DNA from: an uncultured Mycoplasmatota bacterium
Lineage (GTDB): Bacteria > Bacillota_I > Bacilli_A > RF39 > UBA660
DNA length: 64,000 nucleotides
Direction: 5' to 3'
NCBI GenBank assembly: GCA_900547225.1
Contig: URFW01000001.1
Location: forward strand, 128,456 to 192,455
The notes below the pieces were generated by a model. That model worked only from the letters and a program-made list of their open reading frames with translations, was not told where the DNA came from and searched no databases. Below, in pieces: positions 39,544-42,917 of the stretch (positions are counted from its first letter, which is position 1; each line of letters begins with the position of its first letter). Position numbers and translations under genes: made by a program.

Positions 39544-40122
39544 ATGGAAAAAGAAAGAAAAGTTAAAACTCTATCAATAGCTGCATTAATCGTAGCTGTA
39601 TTAGGTTTAACTGTTGCATTTGCTGCTTTATCTACTCAGTTAACAATTAATGGTACTGCTGAAGTAAAAGCTGCAACTTGGGATATTCACTTTGCTAACT
39701 TAAGTGAAGCTACTTTAACAGGAACTGCTACAGTAGCAACTGCACCAACGTTAACTGCAACAAAAATTAGTGATTACAAAATCACAATCGTTAAGCCAGG
39801 TGACGGAGTAAAATATACTTTTGATGTTGAAAACAAAGGTACTATTGATGCAAAACTTGGAACTTTCACTAAGCCAGAACCAGTATGTACTTCAGCAGGT
39901 ACAGCAGAAGGTTCAGCAGCAGCAGCAGCAAAAGTATGTGCAGGTTTAACTTACACTTTAACTTACACTGATACAGGTGCAGCAGTTAAAGCAGAAGACA
40001 CTTTAGCTAAAGGTGAAACTAAAAATCTTACTTTAACATTATCATATGATAGTGATTCTGTTCCATCAAATGATGTTGAAATCAGTGGATTAGATATTAC
40101 TATGGTTTATAATCAAAACTAG
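39544..40122 (+). CDS. TasA/camelysin (CalY/BsaA)-like secreted matrix protein with SipW-cognate signal peptide
   Basis: N-terminal KTLSIAALIVAVLGLTVAFAALS signal. VKPGDGVKYTFDVENKGTIDAKL matches the TasA LKPGD...F.F.N.G core. Promoter TTGACT-17-TATTAT upstream. Confidence 0.6.
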   Translation: MEKERKVKTLSIAALIVAVLGLTVAFAALSTQLTINGTAEVKAATWDIHFANLSEATLTGTATVATAPTLTATKISDYKITIVKPGDGVKYTFDVENKGTIDAKLGTFTKPEPVCTSAGTAEGSAAAAAKVCAGLTYTLTYTDTGAAVKAEDTLAKGETKNLTLTLSYDSDSVPSNDVEISGLDITMVYNQN

Positions 40123-40212
40123 TAAGTAATTAAAATAATAAGCAAAGAAGAAAAGAAGTTTTTCTTCTTTGGTTTGTTATTTTATACAAAAGTATTAAAA
40201 AGTGGTGATTAG

Positions 40213-41355
40213 ATGAAAAAGGGATATAACAGAATAATTATAATAGAAGCTGTTTTACTAATTTTTTTACTATTTAATAGTTTTGTATTCAAAATAGCAA
40301 ACGCGTATGTTGTAACTGGCATAATGTTGCCATTTTTGATTTTAATGTTTGTTATTATGGGTTATGAAAAGGATAGTTTTAGAAATAAAAAAGACGTTTT
40401 ACTTAATATGTCAATTATTTTATTAGCTTATTATTTCATTACCTATTTTTTAGGACTATTTTCTGGCTTTGTAAAAACTAGTTATAGTTTATCAATAATA
40501 AACATAATAAGAAATACTTTTCCGGTTATTTTAATGATAATAGTTTGTGAGTTATTAAGATATGAAGTATTTACTAAATCAAAGGGTAATATGTTTTGCA
40601 TAATTTTTGGATGCATTTTATTTATCATGGTGGATGTAAACTTGTCAGTTCATCTTTATGATGTTACGACGGCACTTGGATTAACTAAGATGATTTGCTT
40701 AGTTGTTTTTCCGAGCATTACCAAAAACGTTTTTTTAACGTTTCTAACTTTGAAAGTTGGATATAAAAGTGCTATATTCTATAGGTTTGTAACCGAACTT
40801 AACACTTATATATTTCCAATATTTCCAGATTTTGGTGAGTACATAAACGTACTTTTAAAAACGGTTTTGCCTATAATTATGATGACTAAAATCAATAACA
40901 TGTTTAATTATTATGAACAAAGAAAAATAAAAACTTCTAGGTATAATAATAGAAATTTAATTCTTTATTCATTTATAACTTTTTGGCTACTTGTCATAGT
41001 TATATTAACGAGTGGACTATTTACTTACCAAGCATTAACAATTGGATCTGGTTCTATGTCTCCTAGAATTGAAAAAGGTGACGTAGTTGTTTTAAAAAGG
41101 GTAAAAAGCGACAATATAAAAACATTAAAAAAAGGTGATATATTAGTATTTAATCATGATAATAAAATTATTGTTCATAGAATTATAAAGAAAGTAAACG
41201 TTGATGGTAGCTATAGTTTTATAACAAAAGGCGATCATAACAACGCAAGAGATGGATGGATTGTAAAAAGTTCAGATGTAATCGGAATAGTGGAATTCAG
41301 AATAAGATGGATAGGAATGCCAACGGTTGCACTTAATGAGTTATTGAATAAATAG
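40213..41355 (+). CDS. sipW: Signal peptidase I, SipW (archaeal/ER) type, fused to an N-terminal ~270-aa polytopic membrane domain
   Basis: C-terminal 110 aa carry SGSMSP (Ser), NHDNKIIVHRI (His) and GDHNNARD (Asp) SipW motifs. Residues 1-270 contain about 8 hydrophobic helices. Confidence 0.65.
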   Translation: MKKGYNRIIIIEAVLLIFLLFNSFVFKIANAYVVTGIMLPFLILMFVIMGYEKDSFRNKKDVLLNMSIILLAYYFITYFLGLFSGFVKTSYSLSIINIIRNTFPVILMIIVCELLRYEVFTKSKGNMFCIIFGCILFIMVDVNLSVHLYDVTTALGLTKMICLVVFPSITKNVFLTFLTLKVGYKSAIFYRFVTELNTYIFPIFPDFGEYINVLLKTVLPIIMMTKINNMFNYYEQRKIKTSRYNNRNLILYSFITFWLLVIVILTSGLFTYQALTIGSGSMSPRIEKGDVVVLKRVKSDNIKTLKKGDILVFNHDNKIIVHRIIKKVNVDGSYSFITKGDHNNARDGWIVKSSDVIGIVEFRIRWIGMPTVALNELLNK

Positions 41356-41366
41356 GTGGTGATAAG

Positions 41367-42917
41367 ATGGCTGAGAAGAAGAAACGGAAAGGTGGGTCTT
41401 CGGCTAGGAATGGTAGACGTTATCAAACTAGAAGAAGAAAAACAAAAGCTGTAGAACCTAAAAATAAAACTATTAAAACAGATGATTCTAATCAGATAAA
41501 CAGTGAAAAAGAAGTTGATGAAGCACTTAATTTATTGTTTGATGATAGTGTAGAATTAAAAGAAGTTCCGATTGAAAAGGAGCCAACTATTTTACTTGTT
41601 CCACAAGATATAAAACCAATTGAAAAAAACGAAAAAGAATATAAAGAAGAAGTGATAGATATGCCAAGAGAAAAGAAAAAAGATACTGATATAAAAAAAA
41701 CAAAAGAAGAAAATAAAGAAACAAAAAAGAAATCTAATGTTGATACTTTAAAAAAGAAAGAAAACCTAGATGAAAAAAAGAAAACTGCCGAAGTAAAGGA
41801 AAGCAAACCAACAGAAAATAGTGATATAAATAAAAGCCATACTAATACGAATGATGGTATTTATATAAGTTACAATACTAGATTATTAATAAATGTTGTT
41901 GGTATAATTATTTTCTTTGTTTTGTCACTTGTATTTCTTGTTTCAAGTATATCAGTTAAAGCAAGACGTAACGTATTATATAATCAAGCTAGCAACTTGG
42001 ATTACAAGGTTTATTTAAAACCAAATGATTATTATAAAGAACCATATTTAGGAAAAAACATGCAGTATATTGCCAATTTAATAGATAACATAGATATTAG
42101 TTTTAATTACAATTTTAGTGCTAATCAAAATATTAATTATACCTATATGTATTATGTAAAGTCAGATGTTTCTGTTACTGATACCGATGATAAATCTAAG
42201 GTTATATACTCTAAAAGTGACAGGTTAACAGAACCTGTAACCATAAATAAAGAAAACTCTAATGGTTTTACAATATCACAAAATGCTAAGATTAATTATT
42301 CGGAATATAATGATTTAGTAAAATCTTTTAAAAGTTCTTATGGGATAAGTGCTAATAGTAATCTTGTTTTAAGCCTTTGCATAGAAATAAGGGATGAAAA
42401 GGGAAATTTAATAAGAAGTACTGATTCTGCTGATACCATGAAAATAACAATTCCATTAACGGAGCAGATGATTGATATTAAAATGGATTACAAGGAAGTA
42501 AATAATAGTAATAATGTTAGCATCTATAAAGATTTTAGTATTTCTAATCAAATAACGTTGGCACTATCAATAATATCAATTATAATTTCTTTAGGATTTT
42601 TAGTTAGACTTATAATGTTTATTAATAAGACATCTCCTAAGAAAACATTATATGATTTGACTTTGGCGAAAATTTTAAGAGAGTATGATAGAGTTATAGT
42701 TGATTCTAAAAAAATTGTTAATATGGATGGGGAAGTAATAGATGTAAAAAGTTTTAATGAATTATTAGACGTTAGAGATAATATAGAAAAACCAATTATA
42801 TTCTCAGAAGTACATAAGGGATTAAAAAGTATATTTATCGTAAAAACTTCCAATGAAACTTATCGTTATGTTTTAAAATTGGCAGATTTAGAAAGAGAAG
42901 ATCATAAAAATAAATAA
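41367..42917 (+). CDS. Hypothetical bitopic membrane protein (K/R-rich N-terminus, two TM helices)
   Basis: 516 aa, translationally close to the sipW fusion. TM near aa 175-197 and 388-410. No known domain. Confidence 0.4.
   Translation: MAEKKKRKGGSSARNGRRYQTRRRKTKAVEPKNKTIKTDDSNQINSEKEVDEALNLLFDDSVELKEVPIEKEPTILLVPQDIKPIEKNEKEYKEEVIDMPREKKKDTDIKKTKEENKETKKKSNVDTLKKKENLDEKKKTAEVKESKPTENSDINKSHTNTNDGIYISYNTRLLINVVGIIIFFVLSLVFLVSSISVKARRNVLYNQASNLDYKVYLKPNDYYKEPYLGKNMQYIANLIDNIDISFNYNFSANQNINYTYMYYVKSDVSVTDTDDKSKVIYSKSDRLTEPVTINKENSNGFTISQNAKINYSEYNDLVKSFKSSYGISANSNLVLSLCIEIRDEKGNLIRSTDSADTMKITIPLTEQMIDIKMDYKEVNNSNNVSIYKDFSISNQITLALSIISIIISLGFLVRLIMFINKTSPKKTLYDLTLAKILREYDRVIVDSKKIVNMDGEVIDVKSFNELLDVRDNIEKPIIFSEVHKGLKSIFIVKTSNETYRYVLKLADLEREDHKNK

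Follow-up and report, generated by a model that had tools for sequence, protein, structure and literature searches.

A conserved three-gene operon of uncultured gut Bacilli, probably for a TasA-superfamily fibre, pairs a polytopic ER-type signal peptidase with a DUF5305 protein

Introduction

How a dedicated signal peptidase chooses its substrate, and what eight additional transmembrane (TM) helices fused to such an enzyme might contribute to that choice, is the question raised by a locus at positions 39544-42917 of a 64,000-nucleotide stretch of contig URFW01000001.1 (assembly GCA_900547225.1, positions 128,456 to 192,455 of the forward strand; hereafter, the window). The window comes from an uncultured Mycoplasmatota bacterium of the UBA660 lineage, and the locus consists of three co-directional open reading frames (ORFs), here called g1, g2 and g3, which encode a small putative fibre subunit, a polytopic signal peptidase and a second membrane protein. 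The organisms concerned are uncultured, small-genome gut Bacilli that are highly prevalent and represented in hundreds of metagenome assemblies. TasA-like fibres built by donor-strand complementation are emerging as a building block of biofilm matrices across domains of life, and such fibres may matter for the life of these organisms in the gut.

We propose that the locus is probably a self-contained operon for an extracellular fibre of the TasA superfamily, resembling AbpX, in which the subunit would be served by a dedicated peptidase, an accessory protein and an N-terminal docking domain on the peptidase itself. An earlier note on this DNA had read it as a matrix-protein operon, encoding a TasA/camelysin-like protein, an atypical SipW-type peptidase and a partner in the membrane; the three ORFs lie where that note had placed them, and the analysis supports this part of its interpretation. 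The arrangement was first noted in a preprint of January 2026 on AbpX (bioRxiv 10.64898/2026.01.04.697558), according to which AbpX homologues occur in Bacillota and the dedicated signal peptidase I (SPase I) of AbpX loci is "structurally distinct, possessing ten transmembrane helices". The preprint leaves the role of the extra helices open, and beyond its mention of them our literature search found nothing on the subject.

Results

A polytopic membrane domain is fused to the signal peptidase

The 380-residue product of g2 joins an eight-helix N-terminal domain (hereafter, the N-domain) to a C-terminal signal peptidase, and this fusion is genuine and conserved. An identical 380-residue protein appears in 944 indexed blocks of the assembly collection, flanked every time by the same genes, the longest of the contigs exceeding 1 Mb, and full-length homologues (100% coverage, 58-100% identity) are found in hundreds of contigs from independent assemblies, including that of "Clostridium sp. 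CAG:594". Since protein and gene order alike are repeated across hundreds of independent assemblies, chance can be excluded. Across 31 species loci, no in-frame stop splitting g2 was observed. Together with the homologues described below, these findings set aside the assembly read-through of two genes that the earlier note had asked about.

Searching with residues 1-255 of g2 among 1.84 billion cluster representatives returned 712 clusters (50% identity) at E <= 0.001. Among the 150 N-domain matches listed, about 120 are fusions of approximately 375-390 residues in which the N-domain (1-245) is followed by the peptidase C-terminus, and full-length homologues reach down to 26% identity; a profile search of a 5.8-billion-protein set gave close relatives only. 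A few entries of 235-275 residues stop just past helix 8; the short entries mostly end inside helices or out of frame, and are thus fragment-like. The earlier note had set the N-domain apart from canonical SipW proteins; with 712 clusters, nearly all of them fusions of ~380 residues, and the ten-TM SPase I of the preprint, the refuting case that the note itself named, a known and widespread SipW extension, largely applies. In one 812-residue database entry (P0134), the N-domain with the beginning of the peptidase runs into a long metallophosphatase/5'-nucleotidase-like C-terminus, probably as the result of a chimeric assembly or of a deletion.

The C-terminus of g2 is an ER-type signal peptidase with intact catalytic residues

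Residues ~249-380 of g2 constitute a signal peptidase I of the endoplasmic reticulum (ER)/archaeal type (MEROPS S26B), in agreement with the SipW-type peptidase recognised previously from its motifs. TIGR02228 matches residues 254-374 well above its cutoff (89.9 bits against 51.85; E=1.5e-25; model positions 9-133 of 158), the Pfam Peptidase_S26 and S24 models likewise exceed their cutoffs, and the motifs GSGSMSP (278-284), VHR (321-323) and TKGDHNNARD (338-347) are all present. Residues S281, H322, D341 and D347, which make up the Ser-His-Asp-Asp set of Sec11/SipW enzymes rather than the Ser-Lys of the bacterial P-type, do not vary among 36 diverse homologues, the most distant at 26% identity, and on this account g2 looks active. 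The SipW equivalog NF046067 scores far below its cutoff (68.7 bits against 190) and aligns only over model positions 11-134 of 189; because the match stops there, the C-terminal TM helix of SipW is absent from g2. Judged by these matches, g2 and Bacillus SipW are not orthologous.

The AlphaFold2 (AF2) model of g2 (mean predicted local distance difference test score, pLDDT, 88.8; predicted template modelling score, pTM, 0.66) has eight helices within residues 5-240, a ninth at 246-267, a catalytic beta-domain at 272-364 and a short terminal helix. The eight helices described earlier are therefore present, and the length of ~270 residues given for their domain is right if the ninth helix, the SipW anchor, is counted with them. 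When the whole model is used as fold-search query the peptidase domain dominates the matches, with human SEC11A (7p2p_A; E=1.1e-5) at the top, Streptococcus pyogenes SipA next and bacterial SPases thereafter. The basic loop EQRKIKTSRYNNRN precedes the anchor helix and, following the positive-inside rule, fits the cytoplasmic side; as the catalytic domain must face outside and the K/R-rich loops inside, the N-terminus of g2 would be cytoplasmic.

The N-domain lacks a known sequence family

Neither Pfam nor NCBIfam gave a consistent match to the N-domain in any of 36 + 18 members, even at permissive E, and no PDB sequence family corresponds to it. A weak match of DUF7649 to the g2 of the window was dropped, being common to no other member, and the only matches of the N-domain profile among PDB sequences, to PsbM, were judged to be chance. 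The N-domain has conserved E113, R116, D141 and N172 and a conserved extracytoplasmic P202-I-x-P205-D-x-G-x-Y210 motif. In the model, with the topology proposed above, E113 and R116 (helix 4) and N172 (helix 6) would point toward the cytoplasmic half of the membrane, and the invariant P202-Y210 motif would lie on the outer face, beside the peptidase.

The sole polytopic membrane protein with a meaningful fold score was the CAAX protease Rce1 (4cad_C), matched over 267 columns, that is, the whole chain (probability 0.93; template modelling (TM)-score 0.49 by target length; E=0.09). The CPBP/Rce1 family was assessed by its motifs (EExxxR, FxxxH and HxxxN/D), a match to the family profile and the eight-helix fold. 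No match to the CPBP/Rce1 profile (PF02517) was obtained with Pfam or NCBIfam in the 36 + 18 members at E up to 1-10, residues 1-240 contain no conserved His, and only E113xxR116 resembles a CPBP motif, motif 1. A scan of the available DNA for CPBP motifs detected no CPBP sequence, and a synthetic CPBP consensus used as bait retrieved nothing useful from PDB or plasmids. A true CPBP-fold relationship of the N-domain is thus possible but unproven, and a catalytic role unlikely.

The g1 product is probably a TasA-superfamily protein, nearest to AbpX

No curated family claims g1, and its 631 detectable homologues are all unannotated; we place it in the TasA superfamily, nearest to AbpX, because several weak lines of evidence agree. 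With the Pyrodictium abyssi AbpX sequence, taken from the supplement of the January 2026 preprint, the g1 family profile aligns over 154 columns (hhalign 84%, E=7.5e-6), BLASTP gives 36% identity over 106 columns covering signal peptide, strand and core (E=0.015), and AbpX (9sj2_C) is the sole match of the g1 profile among 177,635 PDB sequences (hmmsearch E=0.12). The AF2 model of g1 (pLDDT 90.7) consists of a helix (2-29), a coil or unstructured segment (30-47) and a beta-sandwich, and its top Foldseek match, a weak one, is the TasA fibre 8aur_A (probability 0.90, E=0.028, TM-score ~0.3). The Pfam model of TasA and camelysin, PF12389 (Peptidase_M73), stays below threshold (16.0 bits against 22.5; E=0.011) and covers residues 59-104 only. 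AbpX used as query in metagenomes found no relatives.

The g1 family is best conserved at its N-terminus, in the signal anchor and the strand that follows it. In the predicted donor strand, ALSTQLTINGTAEV, conserved positions alternate (29, M/L/F/Y; 31, T/Q/S; L33; I35; G37; A39; V41), with L33 invariant and I35 kept in 27 of 28 members, and are in register with W2/E4/L6/L8/A10/I12 of AbpX. All three alignments (BLASTP, hhalign and hmmsearch) place residues 28-41 on the experimentally defined donor strand of AbpX, W2-I12, and the A-F-A↓A of g1 opposite the T-Y-A↓Q of AbpX (arrow, cleavage site). From the -3/-1 rule and the alignment with the AbpX TYA↓QW site, cleavage of g1 is most likely to occur after A27, in which case the predicted N-terminal semi-tryptic peptide of the mature protein is ALSTQLTINGTAEVK. 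Cleavage after A43/A44, with the invariant W46 at position 2, was considered and rejected: the -3/-1 residues there are neither small nor conserved, and hhalign and hmmsearch put residues 28-41, not 45-58, on the AbpX donor strand.

The same type of signal and strand signature opens several larger proteins in other loci (343, 512, at least 541 and 825 residues), which would fit minor or tip subunits sharing one peptidase. In the g1 family, C115 and C131 flank an Ala-rich helix. The disulfide of AbpX has been confirmed by mass spectrometry, and an extracellular disulfide in g1 would be notable for a presumably anaerobic gut organism. An N-G-T sequon at residues 36-38, within the predicted donor strand (N in 16, G in 23 and T/S in 26 of 28 members), is more likely a structural element than a site of glycosylation.

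g3 encodes a DUF5305 protein

The membrane partner, which had been regarded as uncharacterised, belongs to DUF5305 (PF17231; 59.4 bits against a cutoff of 29; E=4.6e-16), a family already proposed as SPase I accessory in tafi and AbpX loci. Hydropathy gives two hydrophobic spans, ~174-196 and ~396-420, which lie ~200 residues apart, bearing out the two TM helices around an extracytoplasmic segment that had been predicted. Across 27 family members of 348-585 residues, the core corresponds to residues 160-516, whereas the first ~150 residues are found in about a third of the proteins and are unconserved. Strongly basic character at the N-terminus of g3 is confined to the first ~30 residues, and the protein as a whole is rich in D/E (77) as well as K/R (87). 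The layout of the core, derived from hydropathy and conservation, matches the DUF5305 architecture of the preprint. A weak NCBIfam match of g3 to a MarR-type regulator was discarded as spurious, since it sits in the extracytoplasmic domain.

According to the preprint (bioRxiv 10.64898/2026.01.04.697558), DUF5305 adjoins the peptidase in AbpX loci as a putative accessory subunit, is fused to SPase I in some bacteria, and can be likened to the non-catalytic subunits of the eukaryotic signal peptidase complex (SPC). Similarly, the DUF5305 protein TafG adjoins the peptidase TafD in haloarchaeal tafi loci and has been proposed to assist it; in Haloarcula, deletion of tafD blocks TafA processing and fibre formation. 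By analogy with these proposals, g3 is a putative accessory subunit of the g2 peptidase.

The module is conserved across relatives

The 31 species loci come from species-representative genomes, mostly metagenome-assembled genomes (MAGs) of uncultured gut Bacilli or "Tenericutes", including Ca. Aphodocola. A g3 homologue lies directly 3' of g2 in 28 of them and one to six g1-like genes lie directly 5' of g2 in most, an arrangement kept even in the divergent loci L032 and L038. The pair miaB-ymcA, on the other hand, is found 5' of the module only in L001, L002 and contigs of the same species as the window, and is absent from the other loci. Being confined to the nearest relatives, this adjacency carries no information on regulation and represents a local accident of gene order, so that the suggested link to a biofilm regulator (RicA/YmcA) is lost. 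Nor does the module stand immediately behind miaB-ymcA, as had been stated: a 143-residue ORF separates ymcA from g1, and the module is merely near it.

Several loci show further variation. In a Clostridiales MAG (L037, 1493-2932, +), the gene next after that of the polytopic peptidase encodes a GGDEF diguanylate cyclase instead of DUF5305, echoing the link to cyclic di-GMP (c-di-GMP) that the preprint makes for bacterial abpX loci. L029 holds a second, shorter signal-peptidase-like ORF (10528-11343, +) ~3 kb 3' of the module, with E=8e-11 to the g2 catalytic domain. The contigs of five typical Bacilli-type loci (L002, L010, L013, L027 and L030) have been assigned to MAGs of Paratractidigestivibacter, Muribaculaceae or Paludibacteraceae, probably through mis-binning.

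Locus layout and genomic neighbourhood

The features of the operon and of its surroundings are listed in Table 1. Only 11 nt separate g2 from g3. The promoter-like site upstream of g1 matches 10 of 12 consensus positions and includes an extended -10 TG. In the spacer between g1 and g2, a hairpin occurs at the same position but with differing stem sequences in 16 of the 17 loci whose spacer measures at least 60 nt. A position kept with differing stems is the pattern expected of an attenuator or mRNA stabiliser that yields an excess of subunit over processing enzymes, and we consider one of these to be the probable function of the hairpin. No separate terminator was seen 3' of g3.

Table 1. Features of the fibre operon and neighbouring elements, in window coordinates
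Feature	Position	Strand	Description
433-residue ORF	35883-37184	+	murD-miaB interval
143-residue ORF	39005-39436	+	between ymcA and g1
Promoter-like site	39485-39513	+	sigma-70-type; TTGACT, 17 nt, TG-TATTAT; consensus match only
g1 ribosome-binding site	39530-39536	+	AAGGAGG; strong
g1	39544-40122	+	192-residue predicted fibre subunit precursor; probable TasA-superfamily member, nearest to AbpX
g1 signal anchor, residues 1-27	39544-39624	+	n-region MEKER..K, hydrophobic helix, cleavage motif [GA]-[FY]-A↓A; from family alignment
g1 predicted donor strand, residues 28-41	39625-39666	+	N-terminal; alternating conservation; putative donor-strand function
g1 N-G-T sequon, residues 36-38	39649-39657		within predicted donor strand
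g1 beta-sandwich core, residues 45-192	39676-40119	+	VKPGD...FDVENKGT motif; conserved Cys pair
g1 C115/C131	39886-39936		flank Ala-rich helix
Terminator-like hairpin	40143-40171	+	13 bp, then T-rich tract; between g1 and g2
g2	40213-41355	+	380-residue polytopic signal peptidase I; eight-helix N-domain plus ER/SipW-type S26B peptidase
g2 N-domain, residues 1-240	40213-40932	+	eight TM helices (AF2); no known sequence family
g2 anchor helix, residues 246-267	40948-41013	+	equivalent of N-terminal TM helix of canonical SipW
g2 catalytic domain, residues 272-380	41026-41352	+	S281, H322, D341, D347; short terminal helix, no C-terminal SipW TM helix
g3	41367-42917	+	516-residue DUF5305 protein; putative peptidase accessory subunit
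g3 charged N-terminal tail, residues 1-~160	41367-41846	+	variable, cytoplasmic, lineage-specific; alignment occupancy ~0.35
g3 conserved core	41886-42914	+	TM1 174-196, extracytoplasmic 197-395, TM2 396-420, cytoplasmic C-domain 421-516
T-box leader	42983-43112	+	sub-threshold; directly 5' of tyrS
Hairpin	43099-43125		probable T-box terminator
tyrS	43149-44375		
294-residue protein	44441-45325	+	Cadherin-like beta-sandwich
Capsule/exopolysaccharide (EPS) locus	45367-56293	+	Wzy-type

Upstream of the module, the gene order is murD, the 433-residue ORF, miaB, a gene of the YlbF/YmcA family and the 143-residue ORF. The 433-residue ORF has no Pfam or NCBIfam family and is kept in L001 (E=1e-56). 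The 143-residue ORF, a cytoplasmic protein with only a weak Phage_YunG-like match, accompanies the module in its closest relatives, and its homologue in L008 (4296-4694) lies 3' of g3 rather than 5' of g1, as if travelling with the operon.

Downstream follow a T-box leader, tyrS and a Wzy-type capsule/EPS locus that starts ~2.4 kb 3' of the fibre operon. The T-box leader was found by a local search with 54.8 bits against an Rfam gathering score of 93 (E=1.9e-11). The EPS locus encodes Wzz, a CpsD-like ATPase, a CpsB phosphatase, a priming sugar transferase, GT2, GT4, DUF6418, a Wzx flippase and a cytidylyltransferase. Just 5' of it, the 294-residue protein combines a signal-like N-terminal helix, a Cadherin-like beta-sandwich (PF12733, E=5e-8) and a C-terminal TM helix; it lacks the signal signature of g1, and the related loci yielded no homologue of it. 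The window contains no c-di-GMP or two-component regulators.

Discussion

A proposed route from precursor to fibre

The arrangement described above suggests a route by which the locus could produce a fibre. The g1 precursor would be held in the membrane by its unusually conserved signal anchor (MEKER..K, a hydrophobic helix and G/A-F/Y-A) and be cut, most likely after A27, by g2, acting as a dedicated Ser-His-Asp ER-type peptidase whose catalytic domain lies outside. Cleavage would free the amphipathic N-terminal strand to occupy the open beta-sandwich groove of the next subunit by donor-strand complementation, giving a fibre without the help of a chaperone, and the hairpin 3' of g1 would let subunit expression exceed that of the processing machinery. 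In a putative complex with g2, g3 would serve as non-catalytic accessory, with an outer beta-rich domain between its two TM helices and a cytoplasmic domain after them. The N-domain, finally, would act as a non-catalytic docking or scaffold module that recognises the signal anchor and, together with g3, holds it near the active site, restricting cleavage, and hence polymerisation, to one substrate class. Because the g1 anchor is unusually conserved, its cytoplasmic n-region included, recognition of the anchor is the most economical reading of the N-domain.

Several observations weigh against this proposal. The matches of g1 to AbpX and TasA by BLASTP, hmmsearch and Foldseek are each weak, and that to Peptidase_M73 is sub-threshold. 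Two hallmarks of the AbpX clade are wanting in its strand: at position 2, where that clade has an aromatic residue, g1 has L29 and the family M (9), L (8), F (6), Y (4) or I (1), aromatic in 10 of 28 members; and at position 4, the acidic calcium-site position, g1 has T31 and the family T/Q/S, with Glu in 1 of 28. Since these residues are missing, calcium-dependent assembly should not be assumed for g1. The mature protein is also less acidic (isoelectric point (pI) 4.58 and 11.5% D/E) than AbpX (4.05 and 14.9%), the values expected of the AbpX clade being ~4.0 and ~15%. Three of the related loci contain a g2-g3 pair with no g1-like gene nearby. The window holds a single subunit gene and no anchor (SLH, LPXTG), minor-subunit or tip gene, so that the proposal does not account for how a fibre would be kept on the cell. 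The g2 protein has nine TM helices and a short C-terminal helix as against the ten TM helices of the preprint's peptidase, and it is their architecture and context that suggest homology. As to docking by the N-domain, the argument comes from architecture and the conservation of the substrate's anchor, in a family known from sequence and models.

The weakness of the g1 matches, the missing AbpX donor-strand hallmarks and the single subunit gene without tip or anchor in the window would also suit a beta-sandwich protein that is secreted or surface-bound as a monomer, either a simple adhesin or one resembling camelysin, for which g2 and g3 would be a specialised secretion-processing pair. We regard this as very improbable, because the segment following the cleavage site is the most conserved of the protein and strictly alternating, with L33 invariant, which is hard to explain for the disordered N-terminus of a monomer; moreover, the same segment heads large multidomain proteins elsewhere, and the operon matches characterised donor-strand fibre loci. 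The probability that g2 is instead an assembly or annotation artefact, joining a membrane-protein gene to a normal sipW, is practically nil: the few short entries ending just past helix 8 could be read in its favour, but the identical ORF in 944 blocks, homologues as distant as 26% identity and the uninterrupted frame in 31 loci speak decisively for one gene.

With respect to the N-domain, the conceivable roles diverge more widely. It may be a diverged module of the CPBP/Rce1 fold, working either as a degenerate, APH-1-like scaffold that captures the signal anchor or as a His-less glutamic intramembrane protease by which the signal peptide, once cleaved off, is broken down, a tentative idea with a modest chance of being right. 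The analogy is with gamma-secretase, in which APH-1, a degenerate CPBP fold, acts as scaffold of another membrane protease. If the idea were true, g2 would be the first fusion of two membrane-protease folds into one machine dedicated to a fibre subunit. Its more specific form, an active Rce1/CPBP-type protease that degrades the leftover signal anchor and makes g2 a "cut and clear" double enzyme for a heavily expressed subunit, could appeal to the Rce1 fold match, the shared eight-helix topology with both ends inside, the invariant Glu-x-x-Arg placed on helix 4 where CPBP motif 1 sits, and the resemblance of F137xxxD141 and S168xxxN172 to motifs 2 and 3. We nevertheless consider it quite unlikely, given a Foldseek E of 0.09 with a TM-score below 0.5, the lack of any CPBP profile or PDB sequence match, the loss of both catalytic histidines of Rce1, and a Glu-Arg spacing of i+3 rather than i+4. 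The mapping of the motifs may itself be fortuitous, as "motif 2" and "motif 3" are 27 residues apart here and reportedly 54 in Rce1. Next after anchor docking we rank a platform for anchoring or polymerisation, in which the N-domain, instead of selecting substrates, would keep hold of the basal subunit or else promote strand exchange as catalyst or chaperone. Such a platform would make sense of a window without a separate anchor gene and of the P-I-x-P-D-x-G-x-Y motif and two-stranded sheet (86-88 with 203-205) on the active-site side, and the second-best fold match of the peptidase domain, S. pyogenes SipA, is a peptidase homologue needed for pilus polymerisation. The SipA match, however, concerns the peptidase fold and not the N-domain, no interaction was detected here, AbpX needs no chaperone to polymerise in vitro by donor-strand complementation, and walled Clostridia loci pair such peptidases with separate SLH or LPXTG anchors (bioRxiv 10.64898/2026.01.04.697558); a platform therefore seems unlikely. 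For export, another role that had been put forward, we found nothing in favour.

Docking of the signal anchor thus remains our preferred role for the N-domain, and its eight helices bear directly on how dedicated signal peptidases choose their substrates. With 712 N-domain clusters and many paired substrates, the operon offers a compact and sequence-rich system in which the role of the extra helices can be approached.

Comparison with known systems

Rce1 and other CPBP proteins share with the N-domain an eight-helix bundle with both ends cytoplasmic, a borderline fold match over the whole chain and a Glu/Arg pair on helix 4, but differ in that no sequence-profile match exists, the catalytic histidines are absent from the N-domain and the spacing of the motifs is unlike. 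The eukaryotic SPC (SEC11 with SPCS1/2/3; PDB 7p2p) provides, in SEC11A, the best match of the g2 catalytic domain and likewise works with non-catalytic membrane subunits. In g2, by contrast, the catalytic subunit itself carries the additional TM helices, and the likeness of the N-domain and g3 to SPCS1-3 is one of analogy only.

In the tapA-sipW-tasA operon of Bacillus subtilis, as here, a matrix subunit gene adjoins that of a dedicated ER-type signal peptidase, and the TasA fibre that is the top fold match of g1 (PDB 8aur) assembles by donor-strand complementation. Unlike g2, B. subtilis SipW has ~190 residues, with N- and C-terminal TM helices and no polytopic domain; furthermore, TapA is missing here, DUF5305 is missing in B. 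subtilis, and the gene order differs. The tafi loci (TafA/TafE, TafD and TafG) also combine a dedicated SPase with a DUF5305 protein, and their fibres are donor-strand filaments. TafD, however, has four TM helices and a second extracytoplasmic domain in place of any eight-helix N-domain, and the tafi subunits have Tat signals, are glycosylated and belong to archaeal hosts.

AbpX-type loci differ from the present one in the acidic position 4, the aromatic position 2 and the higher acidity of their subunit, and in having minor-subunit, tip, anchor and regulator genes that the window lacks. They share with it a small acidic beta-sandwich subunit whose signal peptide is followed by an amphipathic N-terminal strand, and a TIGR02228-type SPase I with about ten helices next to a DUF5305 accessory gene. 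The locus thus fits the description of this recently described set, which it joins as a minimal, three-gene version.

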